Source: Treponema sp.
GTDB lineage: Bacteria > Spirochaetota > Spirochaetia > Treponematales > Treponemataceae
DNA length: 64,000 bases
Assembly (NCBI GenBank): GCA_052169915.1
Contig: JBQNBN010000003.1
Span: forward strand, 3,441-67,440
Direction of reading: 5' to 3'
Part shown: positions 31,266-60,482 of the stretch, piece after piece
How the letters are laid out: each line of letters begins with the position of its first letter
Position numbering within the stretch: position 1 is the first letter of the stretch
Made by a program: the position numbers and the translations under genes
The notes under the pieces: generated by a model
Told to the model about the DNA's origin: nothing
The model's database searches: none
The model's input: only the letters and a program-made list of their open reading frames with translations

Positions 31266-31604
31266 TTAGGTCAAAACAATCATCGCTTTATCGCCGAAAT
31301 TCTGACGGGTTTCGGCATCAAGCTCTTCCGCCTCAATACCTTGCGCGTCTTCTTCCATATCAACGACTTCGCCGGTTGCTTTATTAAAAAGACAGTTAAT
31401 CGTATTAAAATTTCCGTTATCGAGATTGTCTTTTACTACAGCAGCAATTATGTCCTTATTCTGTTGTAATTTCCGCAGCCGGTTCGGATCTTTAAAAAAG
31501 CTTACAATGTGAGTAAAAAATTGCAGCACCTTATGAAAAATATGCTTTATATAATTCCATATCCCTCGTACGATTTTGACAATCGCATCTATAACAAATC
31601 CCAT
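31266..31604 (-). CDS. Small protein (amphipathic N-helix) with shared C-terminal module
   Basis: 112 aa with a GAGGAG RBS inside the stop region of the upstream gene. The tail ends FGDKAMIVLT. Confidence 0.65.
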   Translation of the reverse strand: MGFVIDAIVKIVRGIWNYIKHIFHKVLQFFTHIVSFFKDPNRLRKLQQNKDIIAAVVKDNLDNGNFNTINCLFNKATGEVVDMEEDAQGIEAEELDAETRQNFGDKAMIVLT

Positions 31605-31614
31605 TGTATTCTCC

Positions 31615-32151: not shown

Positions 32152-33461
32152 TTTTGTTCCTCCTCCTGAGTTTTTTGTTGATCGGTTTCTTTTACTACAT
32201 TGTAGTTTTTTGTTTCGATATTCTGTTTTATGTCTGCGCTTAAGCTTTTTCTCCGTTCCTCCTTTTTGAGTTTTATCTCGTCCCGTTTATTTTTATCCTC
32301 TGTGAATACTGCAGTAAACAATTCCGGTGTAAGCTTTTGCTCCTCGGAAGTTGCGGCTTTAATGAGCGTATTCAACACAAGATTTTTTAATTCACGCGGT
32401 GCGAGCTCTTCAGATAAGTCGCCCAACGTATTCCAAAATTCCTCTCCCGCCTGATCTTTATCAAATGGAGCTTTTGAAGGAATATGCTTTTTGATTATTT
32501 CAATGCGTAGGTTTTTATCGGGCAGCCTAAATTGAATGTGCTTGAGTATTCTGCTTTCAAATGCTGAGTCATAATTTTCTTTTAAGTTAGTAGCAAAGAT
32601 CGTAATGACATCGTAGGTTTCAAGGAGAATAAGCATTTGGCTGCGCAGCGAGTTAATAGCTTGATCGGAACTGGATGCGACATTGGTAATCCGTTTACCT
32701 AAAAAAGAATCCGCTTCGTCAAAAAATAAGACAGCTCCCGTTTCTTTTGCTTTTTTAAAAGCGGCAACTAAATTCTTTGGAGCATCGCCGACAAATTTTG
32801 ATTCAATGTCGGAATAGTTCAGCGGTAAAAACGGCATTCCTAATTCTTTTACAATGGCATGAGCAGCCATTGTTTTACCGGTTCCCGGCGGTCCATAAAA
32901 GTTGACTACTGAACGAGCAACAGGGTCAATTTCGGAAAAGCCCCATTCGTTGTAAATTAAATCCCGCTTTTTAATCAGCGTGATAACACTGTTTAATTCC
33001 GCGGCAATTTCTACTGGCAGTATGAGCTGCGAAAGTGAATAACGCGGTGTAACCGGCTCTACGTTTAAACGTACTTCATCATCTTGCGGTTTTTCTTTTT
33101 TTTCATCCACAGTATGTTCCTTTTTCGGTTTCTTTTGCGGATCGCCTATAATCCGTATTGTGATGCGGTGTTTTTCCATTTCAGTACGGTATTTTTTTAC
33201 CGAACAGTCCGCCATTGCCATAAATACCGACCATTTAATGTCGGTATTACTACTTTTCTTGCTTTTATCGTACAGAATACATGCAAAATACGTGCTTTCA
33301 TCCCAATCAGGTTCTCCGTAGGAAAAAGTACATTCGACTGCCTCTATATCCCCGACAGCGCTTTCAAGTTTTTGCACATATTGTGTGTATAGTTCTTCTG
33401 AAAGAGCTTCGATAAAAGCAAAATCTTCTTTTTTATTACGATGATTAATAGTAAAGTTCAT
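32148..33461 (-). CDS. Classical-clade AAA ATPase with unrecognised N-terminal domain
   Basis: 437 aa with Walker A GPPGTGKT, Walker B LFFDEAD, sensor-1 FATN and the second region of homology (NYDSAFESRI). The ~190-aa N-domain and the Lys/Glu-rich tail are not recognised. Confidence 0.9.
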   Translation of the reverse strand: MNFTINHRNKKEDFAFIEALSEELYTQYVQKLESAVGDIEAVECTFSYGEPDWDESTYFACILYDKSKKSSNTDIKWSVFMAMADCSVKKYRTEMEKHRITIRIIGDPQKKPKKEHTVDEKKEKPQDDEVRLNVEPVTPRYSLSQLILPVEIAAELNSVITLIKKRDLIYNEWGFSEIDPVARSVVNFYGPPGTGKTMAAHAIVKELGMPFLPLNYSDIESKFVGDAPKNLVAAFKKAKETGAVLFFDEADSFLGKRITNVASSSDQAINSLRSQMLILLETYDVITIFATNLKENYDSAFESRILKHIQFRLPDKNLRIEIIKKHIPSKAPFDKDQAGEEFWNTLGDLSEELAPRELKNLVLNTLIKAATSEEQKLTPELFTAVFTEDKNKRDEIKLKKEERRKSLSADIKQNIETKNYNVVKETDQQKTQEEEQK

Positions 33462-46633: not shown

Positions 46634-47593
46634 TTACGTCTTCCCGTCGGACATCTTCTGCAGTAAGTAATCCATTATCCCGTCATCATCGCAGGCGTTA
46701 AGAATCGTTTCCATCATATGCCCGTGAAGCATAGTCCAGTCGTTTTTGATGAACTCAAGGCTTCCGTCAGGTAAGCGGCGGTAGATAAGGCGGAAACTGT
46801 CTGCGTTTCCGTAAATGTCGACAAAAAGCGTGTCCCCGTATTCTTCCGTGCGCTCAACGCGCGTATGTCGCGCGCCGAAAGTCGGAGCCGGATATTCGAT
46901 TATCGTGCCGACAATATCTTTTACGCGGAGACTTTCCGCCTTTCCTGCCGCGCGGATTTTTGAAAACCGCTTGAGTTTTTCAATATGAAAGTCGGTGTTG
47001 TCGCGGTAATCTTCCATTATATAAAGAAGATACCAGTCGTCCCACGCATAAATGAGCCGTACCGGACGCAGCAGGACTTCAGTCTCGCCGTCTTTTACGC
47101 AGCGAACGCAAAGATTTTTGTTCATCGACTGCACAAACGTTTCCGCATCGGAAAAAGTTCCCCAGTTGGAAAGCGCAATCTGGATATTCTCCCGCACCGT
47201 GTGGAAGGTCATTTTTTGCATTTGTCCTGCACGCTCGACGATGGAGCGGAATATATCGTCAATCTGAGGCGCATAAAAAGTCCCGCCGAAAAGCGAATCC
47301 ATAAGGCGCCACGCAAGCGTCAAAACGGCAATGTCGCTCTCACTGTAGGCAAAATCCAAAAGCGCAAAGTCGGGATAGCAGTAAAAATAGCCGCGCTTTT
47401 CATGACTGTATTCGATGGGCGCGCCGAGATTCATTTCCATATACCGAAGGTCGCGCTGAATTGTGCGCTTACTCACCTCAAGTTTTTCCGCAATCTTTTT
47501 CGCCGACGGGCATTTTCCCGCTCGTATCATCTTATCGATTTCAAACATCCGCTTGTACGCCGTGCGGTATTTGTCTTTGAATAATTCATCCAT
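46634..47593 (-). CDS. WYL-domain transcriptional regulator (HTH + WYL)
   Basis: 319 aa with an N-terminal DeoR/HTH_11-type motif (AKKIAEKLEVSKRTIQRDLRYMEMNLGAPIEY) and a central WYL-like region (IYAWDDWYLLYI). Confidence 0.78.
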   Translation of the reverse strand: MDELFKDKYRTAYKRMFEIDKMIRAGKCPSAKKIAEKLEVSKRTIQRDLRYMEMNLGAPIEYSHEKRGYFYCYPDFALLDFAYSESDIAVLTLAWRLMDSLFGGTFYAPQIDDIFRSIVERAGQMQKMTFHTVRENIQIALSNWGTFSDAETFVQSMNKNLCVRCVKDGETEVLLRPVRLIYAWDDWYLLYIMEDYRDNTDFHIEKLKRFSKIRAAGKAESLRVKDIVGTIIEYPAPTFGARHTRVERTEEYGDTLFVDIYGNADSFRLIYRRLPDGSLEFIKNDWTMLHGHMMETILNACDDDGIMDYLLQKMSDGKT

Positions 47594-47852: not shown

Positions 47853-47932
47853 TCAAGTTTTCGATTAGTAAACTTGCAGCAGGCTGAACTCAGTTTAAGT
47901 CTGTCAAATCTTTATAGCACCCACCTGCGCCG
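47853..47932 (+). repeat. Dispersed two-hairpin intergenic repeat (copy)
   Basis: CAAGTTTTCG-ATTA-GTAAACTTG...AAGTCTGTCAAATC...CACCTGCGCCG. It occupies the 5' extension of the ORF-track patatin ORF. Confidence 0.5.
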
Positions 47933-47966
47933 TCTCTTGTCGCCCCCGCTGCGCTATACTTTCCGC

Positions 47967-48782
47967 ATGGAAAAGAAACTCGGTTTAGTATTAGCAGGCG
48001 GAGGCGGAAAGGGAGCGTATCAAGCCGGCGTATGGAAATATTTACGGGAATCAGGCATTGCAGACCGCATTTCCGTATTGTCGGGAACGTCCGTCGGCGC
48101 GCTCAACGCCGCTCTTTTTACTCTTGTACCGTACAAAACGGTGGAACGCATTTGGACGTGCGCCGTCCATGACAAAATCCTTTCGTTGCAGGACAAATCT
48201 CTTCCTGCAATAGAAGACGGATTATCTTTTATTGCAGAGGGACTTTTTAGCGCCGCCTTATCGTCGTTCAAGACAGTTGCGGAAAACGGTATCTGGAGCA
48301 GAGACGGACTTTTGGAAATTATGCAGAGCATTCCGCTTAAAAATCTGCACAATCCCAAAATTCCTTCAGTTTATGCCGCCTGCACAGCCGTTTTTCCTCT
48401 GTTCGGAACCAAATATTTTAGACTAAACGGATACAATATCCCGAAAATCCGAAAAATTCTCCTTGCTTCAAGCGCAATCCCGCTTGCCTTTAAGCCGGAG
48501 ACGATTGACGGCACGCTCTACCTTGACGGCGGACTTACCTGCAACGTACCGCTTGCCCCGCTTATCAGAACACACTGCGCCTGCGCCATCGTAATCACCT
48601 TGTTGGAAAATGCCGAAATAACTCCCCCTCCGCCGCCTCAAATGCGCGTTGTTACAATCCGCCCGTCCGAGCCGCTTGGAAAACTCGGCGCTCTAAACTT
48701 TTCTTCCGCGCGGATACGCCGCTTAATCCGCCTCGGCTATGAAGACACGAAGCGAACGCTGCGTGAGGGGAATTGGTTTTAA
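47967..48782 (+). CDS. Patatin-like phospholipase
   Basis: Reads MEKKLGLVLAGGGGKGAYQAG (oxyanion GGGxxG), with GTSVG (GxSxG nucleophile) and YLDGGL (catalytic Asp). The start is placed at the internal Met after the repeat element. Confidence 0.85.
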   Translation: MEKKLGLVLAGGGGKGAYQAGVWKYLRESGIADRISVLSGTSVGALNAALFTLVPYKTVERIWTCAVHDKILSLQDKSLPAIEDGLSFIAEGLFSAALSSFKTVAENGIWSRDGLLEIMQSIPLKNLHNPKIPSVYAACTAVFPLFGTKYFRLNGYNIPKIRKILLASSAIPLAFKPETIDGTLYLDGGLTCNVPLAPLIRTHCACAIVITLLENAEITPPPPPQMRVVTIRPSEPLGKLGALNFSSARIRRLIRLGYEDTKRTLREGNWF

Positions 48783-48831: not shown

Positions 48832-49131
48832 TTAAAATTTACGCATTACCCTCACTCCCATCCGCGTTTCATTGAATATGAATACATATTCTCCGCTGTC
48901 CGGCACGGTGAAGAAAAAATTACTATTAGACTTCCTGCCTGATGTTGACTTGTAGTCTGCGCTGTCAAGCGGAATAACAGCACGCATGTAATCAAGCGCG
49001 CCCCACTGCTGCGACCAGTTTTCAACAGCAGCGCAAAACTTAAATTGCGCGGTTGTACCGACTGCAAGATATACCGTACACGACCAAACGGCTTCTCCTG
49101 AGGGCGCATCAAGCATCATCCCCATCGCGCC
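48832..49131 (-). other. CBM-like beta-sandwich module, in frame with the upstream ORF across a TGA
   Basis: ..GAMGMMLDAPSGEAVWSCTVYLAVGTTAQFKF...GEYVFIFNETRMGVRVMRKF is homologous to 54251-54652. The preceding codon (49132-49134) is TGA where the paralogue has TGG. Confidence 0.6.
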
Positions 49132-50388
49132 TCAATTATTCATGTTGCCGCGCAAGAACATCGCCGTAGAGACGGCTACGACTACGGCAATGTTTTGCTC
49201 TTCGGCGGCGTAATCTGCGTCCCCCATATCCGAATTAACTTGTCTTTCTCCTTCTACTCGTTCACTGTTTCGGGGGGGGGGGGGGGGGGTAATGATTGCA
49301 AAAGGGGTCCTGTCGCCAAAATTATGTTCCACTACTTTCAAATAAAATATCTTTCCTGAACATGGAGCAAAAATGTTATATGTTGATGAGGAACGAACAG
49401 TTGCTTTCCCTTCAAAGCCGGTTAGATGTGCAATACATTGCCCTTCTTCTACCAGAGCACCATGTTCACAGCCTCTCTGGAGTTCCCATCTGAGTCTATA
49501 ATAACCAGAACTCTCTTTACTAGCAGCATAAGCAGAACTGCCTATTTGATTGAGAATGTGAAGAAAGCCGTTATATGGATTAGTAAGACCATTTTTCTCA
49601 TACTCAGAAAAATAACCGCCGGATGCAGCAGCGTGTTTAGTTACGCAGACTACACTGTTCGTAAGCACTCTATCGATTTCACTTTCAAGCTTTCGCTCAT
49701 ATTCGGTTTGCAGTTCCAAGATTTTTGCGTCTTTCCGGCTCTCGGTCTCTGCCAGCTGCCGTTGATGTTCGGAGCGTTCTTCCGCCGCTTTTTTCTGCGC
49801 GTTCGTCAATTCCCGCTCGTATTCCGTTCTCATCTTTTCAATCTGTGCGTCTTTTTGCTTTAAGGCTTCTTCATCGCGTCCGAACACGCTTGTATCTGCG
49901 GAAAAAAGCGTAATAAAATCCGACGTCTCAAGAATGAGCGCATTTTCAGGCTCTGAATCGGAGCAGGCACAGTCGGCATGGGCGTTTTCATCAACGCAGA
50001 TTGTATATGCAGCATCCAAAACAGAGACAGCAAATTCGTCACCCTTTTTTATTGCGCGCTTGGCTGCCGCAATAAACGGCAGTACGTACTCCGCTTGGAT
50101 AAGGCTGCTGCACTTTGCTTTGAGAGTCAGCGCGTGCAGGCGTTTGGCGGCAGTTCCGTCCCGCCCGCAGTCAACAATGATGAGCGCAAAATCATCGTCG
50201 TCAAAATCATTGATACTGTAGAAGTCTTTTATAAACTCTACAAATGTATCCATATCTTCTGATGTTTCATAATACATACACGGATTTCCGTTTATGCTCA
50301 CGGGGTTTGCATTGCCGCTTGTATCGACGGCAAGCGCCCGCGCCTCTGAAGCGGTAACGACCGCAAGTATTCTATAGCGCGCTTGCAT
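49132..50388 (-). CDS. Island-II family protein A: conserved N-domain, coiled coil, large middle region, poly-Pro
   Basis: The start is at MQARYRILAVV with an AAGGAGG RBS. The N-terminal 150 aa are ~70-80% identical to the paralogues at 54613-55392 and 56655-58589. It ends ...FLRGNMNN at TGA. Confidence 0.7.
   Translation of the reverse strand: MQARYRILAVVTASEARALAVDTSGNANPVSINGNPCMYYETSEDMDTFVEFIKDFYSINDFDDDDFALIIVDCGRDGTAAKRLHALTLKAKCSSLIQAEYVLPFIAAAKRAIKKGDEFAVSVLDAAYTICVDENAHADCACSDSEPENALILETSDFITLFSADTSVFGRDEEALKQKDAQIEKMRTEYERELTNAQKKAAEERSEHQRQLAETESRKDAKILELQTEYERKLESEIDRVLTNSVVCVTKHAAASGGYFSEYEKNGLTNPYNGFLHILNQIGSSAYAASKESSGYYRLRWELQRGCEHGALVEEGQCIAHLTGFEGKATVRSSSTYNIFAPCSGKIFYLKVVEHNFGDRTPFAIITPPPPPRNSERVEGERQVNSDMGDADYAAEEQNIAVVVAVSTAMFLRGNMNN
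49272..49289. repeat. Homopolymeric G18 tract (C18 on coding strand)
   Basis: Counted directly: 18 consecutive G. On the minus strand it encodes T-P-P-P-P-P-R inside family protein A. Confidence 0.95.
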
Positions 50389-50518
50389 ATTATTTTCCTC
50401 CTTCATAAACCTGTTCGGAAACTTCTGGTTCGGAACAGGGTACTTTTAAATGCAATGTTCTCAATCGCGCTGTTTGTGCGATTGAGAACTCGTCAACCCG
50501 TTTGATAACGGAGTGCTT

Positions 50519-51142
50519 TTATTTACGCGATTTTAATGCGTTAGTCAGCGCATCGGAATCGCTGATATTCGGGTTTATTGCCTTTTCAATACCTTTTAAA
50601 GCGGTTTCCGCTTGGGCAAGTTTTTTGTCGTTGTGTTCGGTTCCATTCATGTATCCGAACACAGTTTTTGCCGTGTCGAGACTGCCGCTTATCAGCTTTC
50701 CGAATTCCGTCATACGCGCTTCCGTAAAATACTGCGGATTTGCAATTACATATTTTGCAAATGCCTCCATGGGGAAATCCGGGTATTTTTCTGCAGCAAG
50801 AGCCGAAGTAAGGGTAATTCCTTTTTGCAACTTCTCCTCTTCGGGAATGAGCTTTGATTTTTCAGGATCGACTTTAAATCCTTCCACTGCTTTTACATAT
50901 TTATCATACGAATCAAAATTTTCAGGTTTTATGCCCGCTTCCTCCGCTTGAATTGCTTTGTCTCCCAATTCTTCAGGCTTTGTTTCAGGCTTGATAATGC
51001 CTAATGCCTTTCCCAACGCGACAAAGGCGCTGCCGAGCGCTTTTAATCCCTGAATTGCAAGCCCTGCAATCGCAAGAGCTTTTCCGATTGTCGTTGCCGC
51101 TGCAATAATACTTCCAATGGCTCCAATAATAACTCCGAACAT
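50519..51142 (-). CDS. Hypothetical protein with N-terminal Gly/Ala-zipper segment
   Basis: 207 aa reading MFGVIIGAIGSIIAAATTIGKALAIAGLAIQGLKALGSAFVALGKALGII, then a helical Lys/Glu-rich region. It starts 18 nt after the ATPase stop. Confidence 0.6.
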   Translation of the reverse strand: MFGVIIGAIGSIIAAATTIGKALAIAGLAIQGLKALGSAFVALGKALGIIKPETKPEELGDKAIQAEEAGIKPENFDSYDKYVKAVEGFKVDPEKSKLIPEEEKLQKGITLTSALAAEKYPDFPMEAFAKYVIANPQYFTEARMTEFGKLISGSLDTAKTVFGYMNGTEHNDKKLAQAETALKGIEKAINPNISDSDALTNALKSRK

Positions 51143-51160
51143 AATCGTTCCTCCTAAATT

Positions 51161-54100
51161 TTACATCAGATACCGGCAAATATCTCCACCGATATCCTCT
51201 TTTGTTATATTTTTTGCATCGAACACGCCGATGTAAAAATCCGTAAGTTCCGCAATACGCTTTTGAGTGTCTTCCGGTTTATCATCGCTTTTCGCTTTGC
51301 CTTTCAACAGTTCCCGTCTGCGTATTAAAAGAGTCCATATCTTTTTACGTTCCAGTCCCGTTTTCTGAGAAACTTCTCCGATTGCTTTTTTAAGCTGTTC
51401 GCAGGTTGCACTATCCGGCTCCCTCTTCGAAATACTTTCCGCAACCTTATCGTACAATCTGTAAATAGAGAGAATTTCAAGATCGTCGTAACACTTCCCC
51501 AATTCAGGACGCTTTTCTAAAAACCGCGTGCGGACAACTTCATCGCCGATTTCGCGCTCGTTGGTGTCGGTGATACGCGTAATAAAGACGTGAACGGGTT
51601 TGTCCGTATGTTCGTTAAAGACGACGGCATTTCCCGTTTCAAGGGCTGAAAGATATTCCTTTTGTTTGTCGTCCATCAGCATGGTGTCTCCGACCGCTTC
51701 TTTGTCGTCTTTGGCAAGAATCTTGTGGATAATCTTTGTGTTGGTGTTTTTTAATACCTCAGGCGCAAGTTTATTCGGAATCTGGTCTACGACGATCAGC
51801 CCTTCGCCGTATTTACGAACTTCCGCAAGCAAGTCCGTAAAGGTTTCAACCGCGCCTTTTTTAGAACCGCTGTCGCCGAATTCCACTTTGGAAAGCAGGC
51901 GGTGCGCTTCTTCTATAAGCGTCAGATGTCTATAGTCGGGATTTTCCTTGTGTTTTGCTTTGATAACCGCAGAAAGGCGCGACAAAACAAAGCCCATCAG
52001 AAGCGATTTATCTTCCGGAGACTTCAGCTCTTCCATTTCAAGAATGACGTTATGCTCGGCAATATAGTTAAAGTCGGTGGAATGAGCGCAGTTGAGCATG
52101 GCGCCTTTTGATCCGACGGTCAGATTGGAAAGACGGCTGACAAGCGAACCTTTATAATTTGCCGCAAGTTCCGCTCCGAATCCTTTTTCGCCAACAACGG
52201 CGTCCAATTCCGTCAGCAATTCGGAAAGAATGGGAAAACTGTCCGTATCGGCGTCAAACGCCGCGTCTCCGTAGGAGTCGTTTTCATTCGTGTCGATATT
52301 CCAGCCCTTTTTTTCGTAGCAGCGGTAGATCGCTTCTTCCAAAATCTGCGGCATAGACGCTTCCATCGGGAAAGCGGACGTAAAAGTCGCCTTTACCATA
52401 TCGATATGCGATGAAATCACTTCGCCGGGGATCAGTTCAAACGGGTTTATTCTAAACGGAGAAGCAGTTTCGTTGCCGAGCGTAAAGACGACGATATCTT
52501 TAAACGCGCTTCCCGTGCCGGAGACGTCTCCGTTGATGAGCGTGCGGTATTCGGTTTTTGCAGGCTCAATAACAAGGAAGGGGATTTTTGCCTGTGAAAG
52601 CAGCTTGTGGCAGGTGGTTGTTTTTCCGCTGCCGGTAACGCCTGCGATAAAGGTGTGCTTTGCCATGCTTTTTCGCGAAAGCGTAAACGGCAGTTTTGTA
52701 AGCGGACGCCCGCGCTGTACCATGTAGCCGAGTTCTATCCCCGCCTCTTGCGTTCCGAACGGTTTTTCGTTCAGTCCGAAGTCTACAATTTCTTTAAGCG
52801 GAATGCCGGGAACCTCCGTCTGAGGCAGTCCCGCCAACAGGCTGATTTCAGACGCGGTCAGATAGGTGCAAAGCCCTTCACCGAGTTTTGAATCGGGACG
52901 GGATAAAAGCAGCCGCGCATCTTCGGAAACGGCAGGCTGCGTGTCGTATTGATTTTGGTATGTTTGCAAAATGCCGCAGGTTTCTTCTACGGATTTTTTT
53001 AATTTTTTTGCGATAAGCGGACTGTGAGTCGCCTTATTCCCTTGAAAGATTGACATAAGTCCGACTTTTAGCCGTTCCGCATGGCTTGGTTCCTTTGCCA
53101 TGTAATACACGGACGTCTTAAACGCTCCCTTACCGAGCCCTAAGCGAATGCGCTCTAAAAGCTCTTCTTCCATATATTTCATTAAATCCTGCGCGTGCTT
53201 GTTGGCAAGCTCAAGCGTTACCGCGTTGGACGAACCGCGGTTTTGCGTGCTTGTGCGGCTTTCGCTGTCCGATGTTGTTTCTCCTCTACTTTTTCCACCG
53301 CCTTTTGTATGCGCTTGGCTGCCTCCTTTGTTATGACCGTGGGTTGACCTGCCGGATTCAGTGGAATCATTCTCTCCCCATGTGGTTGTGCTTGTATCGC
53401 TCTCGTTGACGTTGTTCGTTATATTCTCCGATTCCGAATGCGTATTGCCGACTGCAACGGACGAGCCGTCATTTTCACTGTGCTGCAAGGTCAGTTTTGA
53501 GATAAGCGCAAGACGGTTGTAAAGTCCGTATACATTGCGCTGCAAGGAAAGCATTTCATCCCGTGAAACAGGCTCGCATACGACGACCAGTCTCCACTCA
53601 AGTCCGAGCATTGAATTTATAAGCCGGTCTATTCCCTGAAAGTCCTGTTCATCCCCGGCATCTTTTTCATTGACTGTCGGAATGCCGAGTAAAAGCCCCG
53701 CGTTTACTTCTCCTATATTGTTTGAATATAGTTGTGCGCCTTCCAAAAGAAAGTCGTTTGACTGCTTATCTTTTACTTGTTCCAGCGCACTGCCGTTAAA
53801 GTTCCCCTCAAAGGCATTTTTGAGAATCTTTCCGTAGTCGTTTGCGCTCATATATTCGCCGGTTTGACTGTTTCCGGGATTGACGTTTTTTACAATGCCT
53901 ATATATAAGTCAATTCCCCGCTCCGTGCCGGAAAGAACGTATGCAAAATTGAACGCCGGATTATCCAGCGAGGCAAGCACGTTTTCAAACGCTTCTCTGT
54001 GCGGATAATCTTTGTCGAATGCAAGCTGCGTTACCTTAAAAAAGCACGCCGAATTCCTGTCAAGTACGGTTTTCTTGTCCGGCGGAAAACCGATATCCGC

Positions 54101-54199
54101 AAAGGTTTCAATAACCTCGTTTTCTTCCGAATTTTGCAGATCATTAAACAGACTCAAGACTTGAGCCGTCTGCGCCGTCAATTGTGTGGAATCTTCCAT
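51161..54199 (-). CDS. HerA/FtsK-superfamily (DUF87-like) P-loop ATPase with ~480-aa N-terminal extension
   Basis: 1012 aa with Walker A GVTGSGKTTT and Walker B LTLIEEAHRLL. The downstream RKYGEGLIVVDQIPNKLAPEVLKNTNTKIIHKI is typical of HerA-like ATPases. The N-terminal region contains a Ser/Thr/Gly/Asn-rich tract. An AGGAG RBS is present. Confidence 0.85.
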   Translation of the reverse strand: MEDSTQLTAQTAQVLSLFNDLQNSEENEVIETFADIGFPPDKKTVLDRNSACFFKVTQLAFDKDYPHREAFENVLASLDNPAFNFAYVLSGTERGIDLYIGIVKNVNPGNSQTGEYMSANDYGKILKNAFEGNFNGSALEQVKDKQSNDFLLEGAQLYSNNIGEVNAGLLLGIPTVNEKDAGDEQDFQGIDRLINSMLGLEWRLVVVCEPVSRDEMLSLQRNVYGLYNRLALISKLTLQHSENDGSSVAVGNTHSESENITNNVNESDTSTTTWGENDSTESGRSTHGHNKGGSQAHTKGGGKSRGETTSDSESRTSTQNRGSSNAVTLELANKHAQDLMKYMEEELLERIRLGLGKGAFKTSVYYMAKEPSHAERLKVGLMSIFQGNKATHSPLIAKKLKKSVEETCGILQTYQNQYDTQPAVSEDARLLLSRPDSKLGEGLCTYLTASEISLLAGLPQTEVPGIPLKEIVDFGLNEKPFGTQEAGIELGYMVQRGRPLTKLPFTLSRKSMAKHTFIAGVTGSGKTTTCHKLLSQAKIPFLVIEPAKTEYRTLINGDVSGTGSAFKDIVVFTLGNETASPFRINPFELIPGEVISSHIDMVKATFTSAFPMEASMPQILEEAIYRCYEKKGWNIDTNENDSYGDAAFDADTDSFPILSELLTELDAVVGEKGFGAELAANYKGSLVSRLSNLTVGSKGAMLNCAHSTDFNYIAEHNVILEMEELKSPEDKSLLMGFVLSRLSAVIKAKHKENPDYRHLTLIEEAHRLLSKVEFGDSGSKKGAVETFTDLLAEVRKYGEGLIVVDQIPNKLAPEVLKNTNTKIIHKILAKDDKEAVGDTMLMDDKQKEYLSALETGNAVVFNEHTDKPVHVFITRITDTNEREIGDEVVRTRFLEKRPELGKCYDDLEILSIYRLYDKVAESISKREPDSATCEQLKKAIGEVSQKTGLERKKIWTLLIRRRELLKGKAKSDDKPEDTQKRIAELTDFYIGVFDAKNITKEDIGGDICRYLM

Positions 54200-54250
54200 A
54201 ATTACTCCTATTAAACCTGTCCGGAAATTTTTGTTTTGGAACAGGTCTGT

Positions 54251-54652
54251 TTATCTTTTGCGTTTGACTTGTACCGTCATCCGCGTCTCATTGAATATGA
54301 ATGCGTACTCACCGTTTTGCAGGGGCGATATCGTAACCGTAAAGGAAAATTGTTTTTGTCTGCCGTCTATGTATTTTGCATTTTTCGTAATACCGTTTGG
54401 TACTACAGCAGCATTATTAATATTAGCCGGTATACAATATTGCTCCTCTTCAACATTTTCATTTGCGAATACAAAATTTACCGTTCCAACAAAGAGGTTT
54501 ACCCTACACGACCAAACGGCTTCTCCTGAAGACATATCAAGCGTCATCGCCGTTGCGTCCCAGTTATTCATGCTGCCGCGTAAAAACATCGCAGGAGAGA
54601 CGGCAACGGCTCTTACGTTTTGTACCGCAGTCGTTCCATCTGCAGCACCCAT
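54251..54652 (-). other. CBM-like beta-sandwich module ORF, out of frame with upstream family protein B
   Basis: ..AVAVSPAMFLRGSMNNWDATAMTLDMSSGEAVWSCRVNLFVGTVNFVF...GEYAFIFNETRMTVQVKRKR. The open frame extends upstream to the poly-C tract, and one extra C would fuse it to protein B. Confidence 0.65.
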
Positions 54653-55392
54653 GCCCGAATTAACTTGTCCCTCTCTTCTTGATTCGGAGCCGTAGGGCTT
54701 AGTCTCCCTCGTACTTGTACTGGTACCGGAATGTCGGGGGGGGGGGGGGGCAGAGGCTGTTTTTTACGTTCATATTCTGCAAGCCTTCGTTCATAGTTTT
54801 CCTTTTCCCGCTCGTATTCGGCTTTCAGCTCGGCAATTTCAGCGTCCTTTTGCTTTAAGGCTTCTTCATTGCGCCCGAAAACGCTTGCATCTGCGGAAAA
54901 CAGCGCGGTAAAGTCCGCCGCGCCAAGGGTAAGCGCGTTTTCCGACGGCGTTTCATCCGTACCGCAGTGCGCGCAGTCAATACGTCCTTCATCATCGACA
55001 CGGAGCGTATACGCCGCATCCTCAACGGTAACGGCAAACTCATCGCCCTTTTTTATCGCGCGTTTCCTTGCCGCAATAAACGGCAGCACATACTCCGCTT
55101 CAATGAGGCTGCTGCACTTTGCCTTGAGCGTCAGAGCGTGCAGACGTTTGGCGGCAGTTCCGTCCTGCCCGCAGTCAACAACGATAAGCGCAAAATCGTC
55201 GTCATCAAAATCGTTTATGCTGTAATCGTCTTTTATGTACTGCAAAAAACTTTCCATATCGCCGGCGCTCTCATAATACATACACGGATTGCCGTTTATA
55301 CTCACCGGCGTTGTAACGCCTCTTGAGTCCAGCGACAACGCTAATACCTTTTTCTCCGTAACAACCGCCAATATCCTATAGCGCGCTTTCAT
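54613..55392 (-). CDS. Island-II family protein B (N-domain + coiled coil), frame-shifted at poly-C tract
   Basis: 259 aa. After PPPPP the frame reads DIPVPVQVRGRLSPT..., which resembles neither paralogue. The N-terminal 130 aa are nearly identical to protein C. Confidence 0.7.
   Translation of the reverse strand: MKARYRILAVVTEKKVLALSLDSRGVTTPVSINGNPCMYYESAGDMESFLQYIKDDYSINDFDDDDFALIVVDCGQDGTAAKRLHALTLKAKCSSLIEAEYVLPFIAARKRAIKKGDEFAVTVEDAAYTLRVDDEGRIDCAHCGTDETPSENALTLGAADFTALFSADASVFGRNEEALKQKDAEIAELKAEYEREKENYERRLAEYERKKQPLPPPPPDIPVPVQVRGRLSPTAPNQEERDKLIRAWVLQMERLRYKT
54736..54750. repeat. Homopolymeric G15 tract (C15 on coding strand)
   Basis: Counted directly: 15 consecutive G, at the junction between the coiled coil and the C-terminal module of protein B. 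Confidence 0.95.
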
Positions 55393-55633
55393 TCATTTTT
55401 CCTCCGTAGCACAGAAAATTTATTTTCACCTCTCCGAGTGCAGCCATTGTAATTCGTAGTGCGTAATTCTTAATTTGGGAATGCGTGTTTTTAATTTCGC
55501 ATTACGCATCCTTAAATTAAGCATTGCCCTATCTCCGACGGCAAAAAACAGTTTCCTCAAGTTTTGCGTAAGCAAAACCTGAGAGGGCGGCGCACAGTTC
55601 CCATCTTTCAAACTCCATAACAGCCGCCCGCCC
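54889..55633. repeat. ~745-bp direct repeat, copy 1 (5' third of family gene + upstream element)
   Basis: 54889-55437 aligns with 58086-58635. About 450 bp are identical apart from one T indel. After a ~40-bp divergent patch, similarity resumes to 55633 / 58820. Confidence 0.85.
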
Positions 55634-55638
55634 CCTCT

Positions 55639-56553
55639 TCATAGCCCTTCTACCTCCTCTTTTGAAAGACCGGTTGCGCTTGCAATCGATTCGGAAGACA
55701 ATCCCATTGCAAGCAATTTTTTTGCCGTTTCAACTTTCGCTTGGTAAGAGCCTTGTTCCATGCCTTGCGCTATCCCGCGTTCAATTCCTCGTTCAACCCC
55801 GTATTCCATGCCTTGCGCAAAGGCGATTTTGCCGGCTTCTTCGCACCGGACTGCGATGTCCGTGTCGTAATCGTATTCTGCAAGTAACATATTCAGTACC
55901 TCCCGTGATTTTCTTTGCAGATATTCTTTCAAAATATCATTTTTTATGCACTCTTTGATCGCTTCTTCAAAGCTGTGCGCTTTATCGGCTGCCGTATGCC
56001 GGCGGACAGATTCCACAAAGAGGCTGTATTCCTCAAGCGGTTTGCAGTCCCGAAGGATTTTGTTGTTTTTATCCGTGTTGATATTCAAAATCCGTACGGC
56101 AAGCTCTAACGAGGGCGCGGATGATTCTGTCATATAGGCGTCGGAGAGTTTTAAGGTTTTTTGCTCAGGATAATTTTCCCGCCCGTTGTAGAATACGTAG
56201 AATTCCGGCGTTGGGATTTTTTGCAATATCCGAAAATATTTTGCGCGCGGCTCTTGAATCTGCTCGTACAGACGGGCGACGTATTGCAGACAGCGAAGCG
56301 GCATATTTTCATTGACGGTCGACTGGTGCTCGGCTAAGACGATGATTTTATTGTCGATAAGGCACGATACGTCGTTCGATAATTTTGTGTAGACGGCTTG
56401 CTCCAATTTGAGCGTTTTGAGCTCCGTCGTGCGCTCGAGGTGCGTACCGTGCAGGGCGTTGTACAACGACAAAAAGTTATCTTTTGCGTTTTTATCCTCG
56501 CTGAATAGGTCAACAAAAACCGAATCTTTATAACGGCGGTTATGCTTTGCCAT
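55639..56553 (-). CDS. Rpn-family recombination-promoting nuclease / putative transposase (PD-(D/E)xK, YhgA-like)
   Basis: 304 aa with N-terminal YKDSVFVDLF...LEHQS-type core (IIVLAEHQSTVNENMP). The C-terminal repeat reads ERGIERGIAQGMEQG...LSKEEVEGL. Confidence 0.8.
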   Translation of the reverse strand: MAKHNRRYKDSVFVDLFSEDKNAKDNFLSLYNALHGTHLERTTELKTLKLEQAVYTKLSNDVSCLIDNKIIVLAEHQSTVNENMPLRCLQYVARLYEQIQEPRAKYFRILQKIPTPEFYVFYNGRENYPEQKTLKLSDAYMTESSAPSLELAVRILNINTDKNNKILRDCKPLEEYSLFVESVRRHTAADKAHSFEEAIKECIKNDILKEYLQRKSREVLNMLLAEYDYDTDIAVRCEEAGKIAFAQGMEYGVERGIERGIAQGMEQGSYQAKVETAKKLLAMGLSSESIASATGLSKEEVEGL

Positions 56554-56654
56554 AAAATCCTCCTCGATTTGTATTTTATTGCAGCTTCCCTATTTCATAA
56601 AGACTTAAACTCCAATTCAACCGGTTCGGAATTGGAGTTTTCGAACCGGTTTAT

Positions 56655-58589
56655 TTATTCCCGTCCGCCGCAGCTTTTACAAATCCTGAAGCCGGTATAC
56701 CCGTCAATCTCAAAAATTGAAAGGTGAACAGATAAGGAGTATATGTCAGAGGGATTGCAAGCCGAGCCTCCGAATTCGTAGAACGTATTGGCGTTATCTA
56801 CGGCAGTTGTTTCCCATATATTACCGCTCATATCGTATAGGCCGATTGTGTTCGGTTGTTTTTGCGCGACCGGATGCAGTTTGCCGCCGGTATTATCTGC
56901 GTACCATGCGACAGCATCTAAATCATCGCTGCCTGCATATTGAAAACTCTGCTGGTCTTTACCACCGTTGGCAGCATATATCCATTTTGCTGAAGTCGGT
57001 ATGTAATAGCCCTGTTTATTTGAGGAAACAAGTTCATAACACTGTACATAATAGTAACGACCCGGCAGGAGAGATAAAGATTCTGCCGGAATATAGGAAA
57101 TACCATCTTTTTGAGTTTTCTTTTCACAGAAATACTGCATATCTTCATCGGATATATGGATTCTTGATAAGTAGACTTCGTACGAGACTTTGGTGTTAAA
57201 TTTGCTGAACATAATATTATACTTCAATTCATTTTCAGGAGTTCTTCCTACTACATCAAGGTACTCAGCCGCCGTCACAGGTCCTGATTTGTGGTGTTTT
57301 TCTGTTAATTTTATTATTTCATCCAGTCCGTCTTTTTTGCTTTTTTGATTACAAAAAAAGACTTGGTCTTTTATGGAAACGTGCGTTACCGGAACGTCTC
57401 TTCCGTAAAAATCAAGCGCCTGCTCAATAAAGTCTTCCCATGCAAGAAATTTATATTTTGAACGCAGTATTGCGTCCACGTCTGCAAGCGCAGTTTTAGG
57501 CAGCAGCAAGGTTCCGCCTTTTTGCAGTTGTACGAAATGTTCTTTATCGATTTCAGGCGTTTCCAAATAAAAATGCGTTTTGAGGTTGGAAAACGTCTCG
57601 TTCAAATCATCGTGAGACATAGCGCACGCATCTGCTTGAGCGTATGGGTCAAGCGTTTTGAGCAAACCCGCTTGCACGGCGTACATTCCCAAGATCGCAT
57701 CCGGCACCTTTTCCGTTACGTCAAAATATTCCTGCATCGTTACCGGAGTCGCTGCCATATAAAAACTTTCAACCTTTATTCCGTTAAACTCTTCCGAATC
57801 CGGCATATCAATCATGCCGCCTTCAACAAATACCATATCGCTTGGGAGTGTCGTTTGCGCCGCAGGTGCGGGAGTTACTATTGGACTTGTATTGGGATGC
57901 GGCTGCGGGAGCAAAGCGTGATTGCCGTGCGGCTGCGCTGATTCTGCTGTCAATTTTTGAATGAGCTCTTTTTTGTCTTCGCCAAAGTATTCTATAAGCC
58001 CTTGTTCAATATTTTTAAGCTTCCGCTCATACTCCGTCTGCAATTCCAATTCCGCAATCTCCGCATCGCGCCCGAACGCGTTTATATCTGCGGAAAACAG
58101 CGCGGTAAAGTCCGCCGCGTCAAGGGGGAGCGCGTTTTCCGCCGGCGTTTCATCCGTACCGCAGCGCGCGCAGTCAATGCGCCCCTCATCATCAGCGTGG
58201 AGCGTATACGCCGCATCCTCAACGGTAACGGCAAACTCATCGCCCTTTTTTATCGCGCGTTTCCTTGCCGCAATAAACGGCAGCACATACTCCGCTTCAA
58301 TGAGGCTGCTGCACTTTGCCTTGAGCGTCAGAGCGTGCAGACGTTTGGCGGCAGTTCCGTCCTGCCCGCAGTCAACAACGATAAGCGCAAAATCGTCGTC
58401 ATCAAAATCGTTTATGCTGTAATCGTCTTTTATGTACTGCAAAAAACTTTCCATATCGCCGGCGCTCTCATAATACATACACGGATTGCCGTTTATACTC
58501 ACCGGCGTTGTAACGCCTCTTGAGTCCAGCGACAACGCTAATACCTTTTTCTCCGTAACAACCGCCAATATCCTATAGCGCGCTTTCAT
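56655..58589 (-). CDS. Island-II family protein C: conserved N-domain + coiled coil + FGE-sulfatase (SUMF1/CLec-fold) domain with inserts
   Basis: 644 aa. FGE motifs are MVFVEGGMIDMP, YYIPTSAKWIYAANGG and GLYDMSGNIWE...GFRI. The N-terminal 130 aa are identical or near-identical to protein B. Confidence 0.8.
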   Translation of the reverse strand: MKARYRILAVVTEKKVLALSLDSRGVTTPVSINGNPCMYYESAGDMESFLQYIKDDYSINDFDDDDFALIVVDCGQDGTAAKRLHALTLKAKCSSLIEAEYVLPFIAARKRAIKKGDEFAVTVEDAAYTLHADDEGRIDCARCGTDETPAENALPLDAADFTALFSADINAFGRDAEIAELELQTEYERKLKNIEQGLIEYFGEDKKELIQKLTAESAQPHGNHALLPQPHPNTSPIVTPAPAAQTTLPSDMVFVEGGMIDMPDSEEFNGIKVESFYMAATPVTMQEYFDVTEKVPDAILGMYAVQAGLLKTLDPYAQADACAMSHDDLNETFSNLKTHFYLETPEIDKEHFVQLQKGGTLLLPKTALADVDAILRSKYKFLAWEDFIEQALDFYGRDVPVTHVSIKDQVFFCNQKSKKDGLDEIIKLTEKHHKSGPVTAAEYLDVVGRTPENELKYNIMFSKFNTKVSYEVYLSRIHISDEDMQYFCEKKTQKDGISYIPAESLSLLPGRYYYVQCYELVSSNKQGYYIPTSAKWIYAANGGKDQQSFQYAGSDDLDAVAWYADNTGGKLHPVAQKQPNTIGLYDMSGNIWETTAVDNANTFYEFGGSACNPSDIYSLSVHLSIFEIDGYTGFRICKSCGGRE

Positions 58590-58820
58590 TCATTTTTCCT
58601 CCGTAGCACAGAAAATTTTATTTTCACCTCTCCGATATCCCCGCTCCGAGCACAGCAATTATAATGCAGAATGCGTATTTTCAATTCCGCATTACGCATC
58701 CCTCATTAAGCATTGCCCTATCTCCGTCTGCAAACACCAGTCTCCTCAAGTTTTGCGTAAGCAAAACTTGGCAGGGCGGCGCACAGTTCCATCTTTCAAA
58801 CTCCGTAACAGCCGCCCGCC
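58086..58820. repeat. ~745-bp direct repeat, copy 2
   Basis: See copy 1. It includes the hairpin CAAGTTTTGC-GTAA-GCAAAACTTG (58748-58771) and GGGCGGCGC...GCCGCCCGCC. Confidence 0.85.
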
Positions 58821-59012
58821 CTAATTCATCACCCTCCCGTCCTTTTCCATGTTGCCGCTGCCGCAGTTCGGGCAGGCGGGCTTTACGAACGCGGCAAAAA
58901 TTCCTCCGTATTTGGCGCGGAAGGACTTGCCGCACGCCTTGCAGCGCATCGGGACGCTCTCGCCCATACGCGGCGGAATGACGGAATTGTTATTTGCTCC
59001 AAAATTTTTCAT
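58821..59012 (-). CDS. Small zinc-ribbon protein (CxxC...CxxC)
   Basis: Reads MKNFGANNNSVIPPRMGESVPMRCKACGKSF...ACPNCGSGNMEK. A GGAGG RBS lies 6 nt upstream of this Met. Confidence 0.5.
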   Translation of the reverse strand: MKNFGANNNSVIPPRMGESVPMRCKACGKSFRAKYGGIFAAFVKPACPNCGSGNMEKDGRVMN

Positions 59013-59109
59013 ACGCGCCTCCAAAGTCAGCCTTATGCCGGATAAAATCAGATAAATAGATTAACACAACAATTTTCATATTTCTATAGAATATATTTTC
59101 AATTACAAG

Positions 59110-59170: not shown

Positions 59171-59452
59171 ATGGATATTGAAATCATTGCTGAAGTACAT
59201 AAAGTTTCCGAGCGAATCCAAAAACTCAGACAGGAAAAGCGCATGAGTCAGATGGATTTGGCAGTCGAGGCGGGAATTTCTCAAGGTTTTCTTGCAATGA
59301 TAGAGACGCGCCGCAAAGTCCCCACGATTATGACGATTTTCAAATTGGCAAAAGCCTTGAACGTGCGCGCCGCCGCCTTGATGGAAGACTCTGATCCCGA
59401 CCGAGAACAGACAAAGAAAGAAATTATCGACTTTATCCAAAAACGGCTGTAA
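59171..59452 (+). CDS. XRE-family helix-turn-helix regulator
   Basis: 93 aa reading IQKLRQEKRMSQMDLAVEAGISQGFLAMIETRRKVPTIMTIFKLAKAL. Confidence 0.8.
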   Translation: MDIEIIAEVHKVSERIQKLRQEKRMSQMDLAVEAGISQGFLAMIETRRKVPTIMTIFKLAKALNVRAAALMEDSDPDREQTKKEIIDFIQKRL

Positions 59453-59704: not shown

Positions 59705-60376
59705 CTATCCTTCCTGCCCACACCGCAGACTTCGCCTCATAAAACCTAAACATATACCACCGTTCTCCGGCGTAATGGAAAACCGATTCTTGTATTCGTC
59801 TTCGGAAGATACAGCCGTAAACGCTGTGCCGTCAGCCCCATTAACCGGAGGGGTACCGTCCGCCCCCCGATATTGCACCTCCCTGCCGTTCTCAATTCTG
59901 CCGCGAAACATAAACTTTGTGGTTCCGGCAGAAACGTCTTCCATACGCTGCCAAACAGCGTCTCCCGAAGACGTATCAAGAAGCATCCCCTGTGGAATGC
60001 GCTGCGTCCACTCCCGCTCTCAATCAAATATCGAATTAAGGTCAGCCATTTCATTGTCGCGGCAAAAAAAGCCCATTATCTGGAGCGGATCGTCGGTAAA
60101 TTCCTCGTGTTCGTCAGGAGGAAAAAAACGCAGTGCCGTCGTGTTGATTGCATTTGACGCCATACAAAGAACCCACCCAAACAGAATAAATCCCGCGCCA
60201 GCCGCCTCCGCCAGCGCGCTCTTAAAACCCGCTTTCTTGTCTTTTCCGCTTTCACGCTCCTCGCTCCCTGCCGACTGGACAAGCGCGTGCCCCGCGCCGA
60301 GTACTGCAAGTCCTGCATTCCCAATCGCATCTCCAACCGCGTTCATAATGACTTTCCGCTTTATTCTTTTTCCCAT
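59705..60376 (-). pseudogene. Gly-zipper protein ORF (60023-60376) continued in frame, across TGA 60020-60022, by a divergent CBM-like module (59705-60019)
   Basis: MGKRIKRKVIMNAVGDAIGNAGLAVLGAGHAL...NSIFD-TGA-EREWTQRIPQGMLLDTSSGDAVWQRMEDVSAGTTKFMFRG.... The module is homologous to those at 48832-49131 and 54251-54652. Confidence 0.5.
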
Positions 60377-60482
60377 TGTATCCTCCATGACGCACAGCGC
60401 GCCGTTTCATACGGCAGCCGGTTTCAACGGCCTTTCGACTGTCCATGCCGCCGTTTTTTCTGCTAAAAGACGACTTTTCACC

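Follow-up and report, generated by a model that had tools for sequence, protein, structure and literature searches.

A recurrent cassette of a HerA/FtsK-superfamily ATPase, a predicted membrane partner and modular Nd proteins, with candidate slippage tracts, in a metagenome-assembled Treponema genome

The stretch of DNA analyzed here (the window) comprises 64,000 nucleotides (nt) of contig JBQNBN010000003.1 (positions 3,441 to 67,440, forward strand), which belongs to a metagenome-assembled genome (MAG) of Treponema sp. (GenBank assembly GCA_052169915.1) in which exact homopolymer lengths are uncertain. The subject is a gene cluster that encodes a motor ATPase, a smaller partner protein (hereafter GZ) and three proteins, A, B and C, that share an N-terminal domain (hereafter Nd). 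The cluster sits in an island at about 46.3-61.3 kb of the window; genes for DAHP synthase and prephenate dehydrogenase form one border, and thioredoxin-like and CNNM transporter genes form the other. A map of the open reading frames (ORFs) of the window bore out the gene order, strand and coordinates of the cluster in an initial annotation that had been made from the sequence, with every gene on the minus strand. In the direction of transcription, the first is C (56655-58589; 644 amino acids (aa)), composed of Nd, a short coiled coil and an FGE-sulfatase (C-type-lectin-fold) domain. It is followed by an Rpn-family PD-(D/E)xK nuclease or putative transposase (55639-56553) and by B (54613-55392; 259 aa as assembled), in which Nd, a coiled coil and a poly-Pro linker precede an out-of-frame tail. 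The motor ATPase (51161-54199; 1012 aa) has an N-region that resembles the VirB4 N-terminal domain (NTD) and EccE3, an insertion rich in S, G, T and N, and a HerA/FtsK-superfamily P-loop domain. GZ (50519-51142; 207 aa) comes next, and A (49132-50406; 424 aa) is last, with Nd, a coiled coil, a module of ~130 aa, a poly-Pro linker and the start of a tail that ends at an in-frame TGA. Protein B is 100% identical to ACTTKL_01000 of the NCBI “MAG: Treponema sp.”. As detailed below, the ATPase, GZ and Nd recur together across bacterial phyla, and two of the tails in the window lie behind poly-C tracts that are candidates for slippage.

Pfam, NCBIfam, PADLOC and PHROGs models were run on all proteins of the cluster. 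No known-system model of PADLOC, Pfam or NCBIfam fitted the cluster, as the initial annotation had supposed; only generic HerA, mad8, WYL and patatin matches were returned, and Nd had no match in any of these libraries. The ATPase scored above the cutoff for DUF87 (26 bits; cutoff, 23.2). Its C-terminal ~120 aa were matched by PADLOC HerA models, and profile matches to solved HerA structures (5e-12 to 1e-8) covered residues 710-852, within the C-terminal half only. The Walker A motif GVTGSGKT (aa 520-527; 52619-52642, minus strand) was invariant in 20 and in 85 aligned homologues, and E763, E764, A765 and H766 of the Walker B region LIEEAH (aa 761-766; 51902-51919, minus strand) were likewise invariant. 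On its sequence, the ATPase is a member of the HerA/FtsK superfamily of P-loop pumping ATPases, and the invariance of the Walker residues leads to the prediction that the motor is catalytically active. Two HerA_antiphage equivalog models, which have cutoffs of 800 and 850, gave 36.7 and 29.6 bits. In NCBIfam, the closest model (“serine-rich protein”, NF033849; 135 bits, cutoff 650) was rejected as a paralogous family. In all, 441 homologues of the ATPase were found, most of them about 985 aa long and full-length. A phage origin was rejected, because the ATPase is essentially absent from phage genomes (just two weak partial matches in 50,697 phage records).

The N-region (residues 1-500) was modeled from an 85-sequence alignment, with a confidence score (pLDDT, predicted local distance difference test) of 74. 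In Foldseek, the top 14 PDB matches of this model were all TrwK/VirB4 (best E, 2.4e-5; probability, 1.0), and a chain of the ESX-3 translocon was matched at a probability of 0.6. The low-complexity insertion (aa 236-326; 53222-53494, minus strand) lies within the N-region; it is 75-135 aa long in the 85 homologues, 56% of it is S, G, T or N, and it is disordered or forms weakly predicted beta-hairpins (pLDDT < 50). The description of the protein as a HerA/FtsK-type ATPase therefore stands for the P-loop domain, with DUF87 above its cutoff, but its N-region is VirB4-like and is not that of the HerA proteins of Sir2-HerA or DUF4297-HerA.

The latter systems and the DndH-type “capture systems” have in common with the present cassette a HerA-superfamily hexameric motor and variable partners in mobile, often regulator-linked cassettes, and the HerA/FtsK capture systems offer the nearest general framework (PMC10853773, PMC12839542). 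They differ from the window locus in that its motor has a VirB4-like N-region in place of a HAS-barrel and a putative membrane protein as its partner. No SIR2, DUF4297, nuclease, PglZ or Dnd partner was found for the window motor; with SIR2 and DUF4297 absent from its neighbours, the earlier comparison with the effectors of known HerA defence systems did not hold. The mad8 ATPase of MADS works with a methyltransferase and other mad genes, whereas the window ATPase matches mad8 (1.1e-18) in the P-loop domain only, and no other mad model matched in nine other neighbours scanned.

The motor and the VirB4/TrwK ATPases of type IV secretion systems (T4SSs) have the same build of N-terminal domain plus P-loop domain, and in both cases a small membrane protein (VirB3/TrwM in the T4SS; GZ, by prediction, here) is encoded next to the ATPase. 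The similarity to VirB4 is at the level of the fold only: the window motor carries the Ser-rich insertion, and sequence models do not place it in the VirB4 family (TIGR00929, 15.6 bits against a cutoff of 643; a VirB4 model for integrative and conjugative elements (ICEs), 38.7 against 590). GZ differs from VirB3/TrwM in lying downstream of the ATPase, in its length of ~205 aa and in its large soluble domain. A remnant of, or accessory to, DNA transfer, serving conjugative mobilisation or DNA uptake in the way of VirB4-VirB3 or the archaeal Ced ATPase, would be in keeping with these fold matches, with scores for the NCBIfam CedD DNA-translocating ATPase (84 bits) and the mycoplasma ICE VirB4 model (2.5e-10) that are both far below cutoff, and with the location of some homologues on mobilisable or conjugative plasmids; mobilisation was also named as an option by Bell et al. 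(PMC11090510). Such a role is nevertheless very improbable. T4SS partners were found neither in the operons nor in the sampled flanks: no homologue of a relaxase, a coupling protein, VirB6, VirB8 or VirB1 was present in the operon, and none of these, nor any other conjugation gene, stood out among 146 flanking proteins. No integrase was found at the borders of the window island, the TIGR00929 score is negligible beside its cutoff, and the steady partners of the motor (Nd, a dynamin, a radical SAM enzyme and WYL regulators, described below) are not conjugation genes.

Genomic context was surveyed in 52 related loci, which represent seven or more bacterial families. They came from Treponema (71-79% identity), Lachnospiraceae, Selenomonadaceae, Oscillospiraceae, Fretibacterium, Fibrobacter, Prevotellaceae, Campylobacter, Brachyspira and Halalkalibacter; metagenomic loci were collected as well, and a few of the loci are near-duplicates. 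A GZ homologue lay directly downstream of the ATPase in 50 of the 52 loci, at a median gap of 15 nt, and Nd was present in 44 (Treponema, Lachnospiraceae, Selenomonadaceae, Fibrobacter, Prevotellaceae, Brachyspira and Halalkalibacter). The co-occurrence of these genes across genomes, on which the initial annotation had made its case depend, thus extends across phyla, and the cassette has spread horizontally. Two Campylobacter loci held the ATPase with GZ (L040) or the ATPase (L042), and Nd was undetected in both. GZ of the window begins with a hydrophobic, Gly/Ala-rich stretch of ~45 aa (Kyte-Doolittle mean of 2.09 over residues 1-19) that is a predicted membrane anchor; a conserved helical domain follows, and the protein carries the conserved motif LGDKALQAEE..PE.F.SY. 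No match to GZ was found in the Pfam, PADLOC, NCBIfam or PHROG libraries. Its homologues are also encoded on Acinetobacter and Photobacterium plasmids. Another form of the cassette was seen in a proteobacterium, on the Acinetobacter piscicola plasmid pYH12207-1 (L057, 7765-20607), where a WYL gene, an ATPase gene (40% identity), a 78-aa gene and a GZ homologue (226 aa) stand in this order, with five hypothetical genes after them, two of which encode ~940 aa or more.

Proteins A, B and C are a genuine three-member family, as had been proposed: they share Nd (~150 aa) with hidden Markov model (HMM) E-values of 1e-33 to 1e-35 (A, 3.8e-33; B, 7.8e-35), and nothing else in the window was matched. 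Members in other loci were identified with an iterated HMM of this domain. An exhaustive search among 1.84 billion proteins yielded only ~150 representatives. Nd lies beside the ATPase in the 56 loci surveyed for it and in one operon that was traced; a second traced contig begins at its Nd gene, so that the ATPase falls outside the view, and is of the same operon type. With this rarity and this context, Nd does not belong to a housekeeping family. In 32 loci Nd is a stand-alone protein of ~154 aa, and in 17 it forms the N-terminus of longer proteins. Residues 7-356 of A align with such longer proteins of ~350 aa (“NdLong”) from Treponema and Lachnospiraceae loci, and the conserved architecture of A is therefore intact upstream of its stop. 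The modules found behind Nd comprise an FGE-sulfatase/TvpA-like domain, the unassigned ~130-aa module, the tails of A and B and a dynamin GTPase, in agreement with the earlier proposal that C-terminal modules are exchangeable. Fusions to FGE-sulfatase occur in the long members P0280, P0290 and P0323. In P0250 (671 aa; L060, 46-2061) a Dynamin_N GTPase is fused directly to Nd, and hexapeptide, 259-aa and radical SAM genes follow; this fusion links Nd functionally to dynamin.

The Nd model, built with database hits, had a mean pLDDT of 61. Its topology (beta-beta-beta-alpha-beta-alpha-beta) is that expected of an ASKHA or RNase-H-like core, and its best Foldseek matches (pantothenate kinase, glucokinase, TsaB, actin, MamK, uS11 and YqgF) were weak, with E-values of 1.6e-3 or worse and template-modeling (TM) scores of 0.35-0.44. 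No relative of Nd was found by sequence in the PDB, and no acidic residue of the domain was invariant or conserved at ≥90%. The model suggests a weak RNase-H/actin-like half-fold.

About 30 of the loci contain a long operon that consists of the ATPase, GZ, the 154-aa Nd protein, sometimes an Nd protein of ~350 aa, a dynamin-like GTPase, a hexapeptide-repeat protein, a Cys-rich coiled-coil protein of ~245 aa and a radical SAM enzyme (e.g. L004, 13774-19625; L039, 13502-18562; L062, 4120-13155). The Cys-rich N-terminus of the ~245-aa protein contains CCxxxCC motifs, the radical SAM enzyme has a Cys-rich C-terminus, and the two look like a peptide-modification pair. The long operon often has a WYL regulator close by. 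No dynamin, hexapeptide, Cys-rich or radical SAM gene was detected in the window by tblastn. These last four genes are also missing from the closest relative of the window locus (L001, described below) and from several other loci, in which, as in the window, Nd is present only in fusion proteins. The window therefore holds a reduced variant of the cassette. Dynamin_N domains in ~30 related loci, with weak PADLOC matches to LeoA (1.6e-11), recall Eleos and other bacterial dynamin-like systems (LeoA, LeoBC); however, Eleos has no HerA-type ATPase, GZ or Nd, and the window has no dynamin. Two dynamin-family genes were also observed on the conjugative dairy plasmid pB26B of Lactococcus cremoris (L059, 40983-48796). 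They share an operon with an HNH endonuclease gene, two short hypothetical genes and the gene for a 1076-aa protein that is distantly related to the ATPase (27% identity); Nd and GZ were undetected there by HMM.

The dynamin-like GTPase, which shares an operon with the motor in 31 loci and is joined to Nd in P0250, could signify a role in the biology of the cell itself, in which motor and GTPase would remodel or repair membranes while the Nd tails anchored them to envelope glycans. The resemblance of the tails to carbohydrate-binding or lectin-fold domains and the frequency of housekeeping genes in the flanks would suit this explanation, which is improbable all the same: the distribution is patchy and crosses phyla, with Treponema and Firmicutes proteins 54-60% identical, the chromosomal position varies, some copies are on plasmids, the cassette is linked to WYL, CoCoNuT, restriction-modification and HNH genes, and the reduced form lacks any dynamin.

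The C-terminal domain of C is assigned to FGE-sulfatase (PF03781, 2.3e-19), and its best solved relative is the variable protein TvpA of Treponema denticola (2y3c, 1.7e-12). FGE/lectin-fold domains are widely used as ligand-binding sensors in conflict systems (PMC7159879), and the proximity of the C tail to the ligand-binding TvpA was counted in favor of an accessory or conflict role; the same survey of such systems (eLife, 2020) does not cover the present cassette. TvpA-type C-type-lectin-fold proteins are targets of diversity-generating retroelements (DGRs). The ligand-binding domain is shared with them, but in the window it is fused to Nd, and diversity would arise by module swapping and candidate homopolymer slippage, not by mutagenic retrohoming. 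DGR targets have a template repeat and a reverse transcriptase nearby; no template repeat that would point to such control of the C tail was found within the window (no second copy of the last 446 nt of C in the 64 kb).

The genes for B and C contain a 768-nt repeat with 92% identity (58064-58821 for C and 54867-55633 for B) that spans the upstream region and the first ~175 codons and stops where the C-terminal modules of B and C diverge. A is ~75% identical to both over ~600 nt. Only two G/C homopolymers of eight or more occur in the 64 kb: A contains a G18 run (49272-49289) and B a G15 run (54736-54750). Both encode homologous poly-Pro linkers just upstream of the tails that were initially described as resembling a carbohydrate-binding module (CBM). 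In A, the tract (minus strand) reads as 18 C on the coding strand, and 15, 18 or 21 C are in frame while other lengths truncate the protein. In B (minus strand), the 15 C of the assembly give the 259-aa protein with its tail off, whereas 13, 16 or 19 C would give 379-381 aa with the tail included. The tail of B is thus a 133-aa ORF (54251-54652, minus strand) split off by the frameshift at the tract and listed by NCBI as a separate gene, ACTTKL_00995. A, at 18 C, is in frame, but a TGA (49132-49134) takes the place of the Trp codon of an NNW motif; its tail (48832-49134, minus strand) continues in the same frame beyond the TGA and contains a separate 97-aa ORF (48832-49125). A recoding of TGA was rejected, since TGA is an ordinary stop here, ending 17 of the 41 long ORFs of the window. 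A third, shorter copy of the tail (59759-59992, minus strand) was recovered by tblastn with the A and B tails (E, 5e-7 and 3e-5); it lies in frame past the TGA of a 122-aa Gly/Ala-rich ORF (60020-60388). All three copies in the island are accordingly severed from their upstream ORFs, two by a TGA and one by a poly-C frameshift.

The tails of A and B are 48% identical to each other. Their status as uncoupled modules was upheld, but the CBM label depends on sub-threshold Pfam matches (E, 0.015-0.05; 14-16 bits against cutoffs of 22-28), namely CBM_20 for A (E, 0.015) and AMPK1_CBM, CBM_48 and CBM53 for B (E, 0.018-0.049). No PDB sequence match was found for the CBM-like tails, and a homologue search with the CBM-like tail recovered only the B-tail protein itself (ACTTKL_00995). 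Across the related loci (900 kb in total), five G/C runs of eight or more were counted, three of which are a single site in the Nd-FGE gene of L001-L003: a G10 tract (L001, 9825-9834, with the same site in L002 and L003) located ~40 codons before the end of that gene, just upstream of the ATPase. Given the rarity of such tracts, their placement is not a matter of chance.

From these sequences, the two tails behind poly-C tracts are candidates for being switched in and out of frame, and the occurrence of the two long G/C runs at homologous tail junctions was counted in favor of switching. Homopolymer contingency loci similarly have long pure C runs within coding sequence, at which the frame shifts with each single base; they differ from the window tracts, which would only attach or detach a C-terminal module and not switch a whole protein, and which are known here from the sequence alone. 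The initial annotation had placed hypermutable tracts, in-frame stops and long repeats at the module junctions. The two tracts and the end of the repeat do fall there, and the tails are interrupted; but no tract-length variants were found in pattern scans of metagenomes. It is possible, though less likely than not, that the uncoupled modules are no switch at all and are pseudogenised tails or products of homopolymer miscalls in the MAG, in which case only the conserved Nd parts would matter. A is complete to its conserved ~350-aa architecture before the stop, every CBM-like copy is interrupted (the TGA in A, the frameshift in B and the remnant at 59.8 kb), no homologue of the module turned up elsewhere, the sequence comes from a MAG, and the G10 tract does not vary among L001-L003. 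Decay does not readily explain why the tails retain open frames of 93-133 codons, why both tracts are at homologous junctions and are the sole such runs in 64 kb, or why the poly-Pro linkers of A and B are encoded by pure C18 and C15 runs when a PPPPP stretch in the neighbouring patatin (within 47874-48782) is encoded without any G/C run of eight or more.

Homopolymer switching is typical of surface antigens, and TvpA is reported to be a surface lipoprotein. A conserved N-domain followed by a coiled coil and a polymorphic C-terminus is the pattern of LXG proteins and other polymorphic cargo of type VII secretion systems (T7SSs). These parallels suit a different explanation, in which the cassette would be a minimal machine for protein export or surface display: motor and membrane partner would translocate the Nd proteins, with the N-domain as the handle and the tails acting outside, and poly-C switching would amount to phase variation of the classical kind, acting on the surface proteins of a spirochaete associated with a host. 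The VirB4-like fold of the N-region and its weak ESX-3 similarity point the same way, and secretion was raised as a possibility by Bell et al. (PMC11090510). Export is judged unlikely but credible. A stand-alone Nd of 154 aa is without cargo in 32 loci, and in P0250 Nd is fused to a dynamin-like GTPase that is cytoplasmic; moreover, the operon encodes no polytopic channel, outer-membrane component or WXG100-type partner, and it would be unusual for a folded RNase-H-like domain to serve as the signal for export.

The ATPase and its small helical partner have been noticed before. Bell et al. (eLife, 2024; PMC11090510) described an “EccE3-HerA” protein with a small helical protein as the third sort of add-on to Type III-A CoCoNuT; its ATPase has an EccE3-like N-domain, a variable beta-strand insertion and a VirB4-like motor, its function was given as unknown, and mobilisation, secretion or a stand-alone defensive cassette were suggested as roles. 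The window ATPase and GZ have the same domain order, insertion and partner gene, a correspondence by description only. On these sequence features, the core is not undescribed, only uncharacterised. The proposal of an undescribed system thus holds insofar as no model recognizes it and its function has not been characterised, but not for the core itself. The CoCoNuT connection was also seen among the related loci: a CnuC-like gene (DUF2357 + CSD) lies beside the ATPase-GZ pair in four of them (L035, L055, L041 and L058, including a Photobacterium plasmid), and CoCoNuT-type genes adjoin the cassette in L035, L055 and L058. The core of Type III-A CoCoNuT consists of an McrB-like GTPase (CnuB), CnuC with its DUF2357, a helicase and an effector of the HEPN type, and VWA genes flank the cassette; by contrast, no DUF2357, McrB-like domain or VWA was found across the 46.3-61.3 kb island in the ORFs scanned, which were most of those of at least 95 aa. 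The published account of the cassette (PMC11090510) says nothing of Nd proteins, WYL linkage, phase-variable tails or the Treponema form, nor of the genes for the dynamin, the hexapeptide protein, the Cys-rich protein and the radical SAM enzyme. New here are the Nd family, the common long operon and the reduced Treponema form. Literature searches that combined HerA, dynamin and radical SAM, or HerA, FGE-sulfatase and WYL, returned nothing relevant.

The domain calls for the genes flanking the cluster in the initial annotation were confirmed. A regulator with helix-turn-helix (HTH) and WYL-type domains (46634-47593, minus strand; HTH_11 and a PADLOC WYL model at 2.5e-17) is likely to be the transcriptional regulator of the island. 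A patatin-like phospholipase (47874-48782, plus strand; PF01734, 3.3e-27; PADLOC phospholipase effector models, 1e-9) is divergent from A. Upstream of C is a small zinc-ribbon protein (58821-59024, minus strand; CxxC...CxxC in its translation), and an XRE-family HTH regulator (59171-59452, plus strand; HTH_3, 1.2e-11) is divergent from the operon. The genes at 60-61 kb that had been taken for further Gly-zipper genes are not homologues of the 207-aa GZ protein. In L001, the ATPase of which is 86% identical to that of the window, the order is XRE, zinc ribbon, Nd-FGE, ATPase, GZ, Nd-FGE, patatin and WYL regulator. The protein encoded directly upstream of the ATPase there is 55% identical to C, and the zinc-ribbon gene of the window is syntenic with the Zn_ribbon_8 gene. 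The WYL-type regulator, patatin and XRE counterparts are 68%, 75% and 84% identical, respectively; an XRE gene is also found in L005. The L001 island is at a different chromosomal site and has neither the Rpn gene nor a B-like gene. The Rpn protein (TIGR01784, 60 bits; cutoff, 52) was rejected as a component of the cassette, having no homologue in 56 related loci and being absent from the syntenic L001; its gene, located between C and B, probably represents an insertion connected with the duplication that gave C and B. The patatin is conserved only in L001; it is largely a bystander, or possibly a lineage-specific effector. Besides the window and L001, 15 or more loci and an Acinetobacter plasmid have a WYL regulator next to the cassette. 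Neighbours in other loci included a Pkinase-STAND-TPR protein, a NERD helicase, GIMAP-like GTPases, type I restriction-modification genes and Csm6.

Two other regions of the window were also noted. At 23073-27891 (minus strand), where the GC content is raised (0.56-0.58) and the AT skew is strong (-0.32 to -0.34), two TPR proteins of 790 and 806 aa contain very long regions of low complexity rich in Gly, Ser, Asn, Ala and Gln. At 30099-33461 (minus strand; low GC, 0.39-0.41), a 437-aa AAA+ ATPase is encoded with a protein of 248 aa, which has an NCEHF motif and on visual inspection looks LRAT/NlpC-P60-like, and this block may be another accessory module.

The explanation favored for the locus, which is given roughly an even chance of being correct, is a motor cassette, anchored in the membrane and linked to WYL regulators, that serves in conflicts with invaders and has the Nd proteins as its exchangeable, phase-variable sensor adaptors. 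The core would be a two-gene motor: an ATPase of the HerA/FtsK superfamily, presumably hexameric, with an N-region of VirB4-NTD/EccE3 fold and a Ser-rich insertion, and GZ, the Gly/Ala-rich hydrophobic N-terminus of which would anchor the motor complex in the cytoplasmic membrane. Nd would be the docking adaptor, whether alone, fused to a dynamin-like GTPase or linked by a coiled coil to ligand-binding modules; the Nd-dynamin fusion in P0250, the Nd-FGE fusions, the small size of the Nd family and its position beside the ATPase were counted in favor of this idea. The conservation of the ATPase-GZ pair and of Nd, the invariant Walker motifs, the VirB4/TrwK fold matches and the agreement with the published EccE3-HerA were counted in favor of the explanation as a whole. 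In the Treponema genome studied here, three Nd paralogues with different tails are present in place of the long operon, the tails being a TvpA-like C-type-lectin/FGE domain, the ~130-aa module and a putative CBM-like beta-sandwich, two of them behind poly-C tracts. Recognition of a ligand would fall to the Nd tails and would be coupled through them to the membrane motor, in an accessory anti-invader module under WYL/XRE control. The output might be capture or translocation of invader macromolecules, or membrane damage via the Gly-zipper partner and perhaps the neighbouring patatin. The linkage to WYL regulators, the defence-type neighbours, the operon with dynamins and HNH (L059) and the shifting chromosomal site were counted in favor of the accessory or conflict role.

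Several observations weigh against the conflict cassette. No nuclease or toxin effector can be recognised in the reduced form from Treponema, and the patatin recurs in L001 alone. The flanks of the surveyed loci are mostly ordinary housekeeping genes, with no dense defence islands among the 146 flanking proteins sampled. The similarity to VirB4 and EccE3 points as readily to secretion as to defence. As to the phase-variable tails, the tract lengths come from a MAG, the length of the G10 tract is identical in three independent assemblies, and the TGA in A and the out-of-frame tail in B could represent decay only. Finally, the model of Nd is of poor quality (pLDDT 61), with fold matches that are weak (E 1.6e-3 or worse; TM about 0.4).

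The cassette is common: the 441 ATPase homologues are found in gut and rumen Firmicutes, spirochaetes, Fibrobacter, Campylobacter and proteobacterial plasmids, and no model in the defence-finder libraries represents it. What had been a brief remark in the literature is now a defined three-part core of motor, predicted membrane partner and putative Nd adaptor, with long and reduced forms, and the fusions of Nd to dynamin, lectin-fold domains and other tails suggest a rule by which partners are attached. The Treponema locus is a natural experiment in which one motor is accompanied by three putative adaptors with tails that slippage may attach or detach, an unusual kind of specificity variation for an immune or secretion device. 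In defence and export alike, a VirB4/EccE-like motor outside the classical T4SS and T7SS would broaden the known roles of such motors. On a more speculative and rather unlikely reading of the same sequences, the ATPase, GZ and Nd would constitute an unrecognised class of membrane machine, a VirB4-/EccE-type hybrid with plug-in Nd adaptors reprogrammed by tail swapping and slippage. If so, this class would be either a new minimal system for protein secretion or a new programmable device of innate immunity, sensor and translocase at once, and in most gut Firmicutes its full version would draw on a dynamin-like GTPase as well, together with a Cys-rich protein modified by radical SAM.

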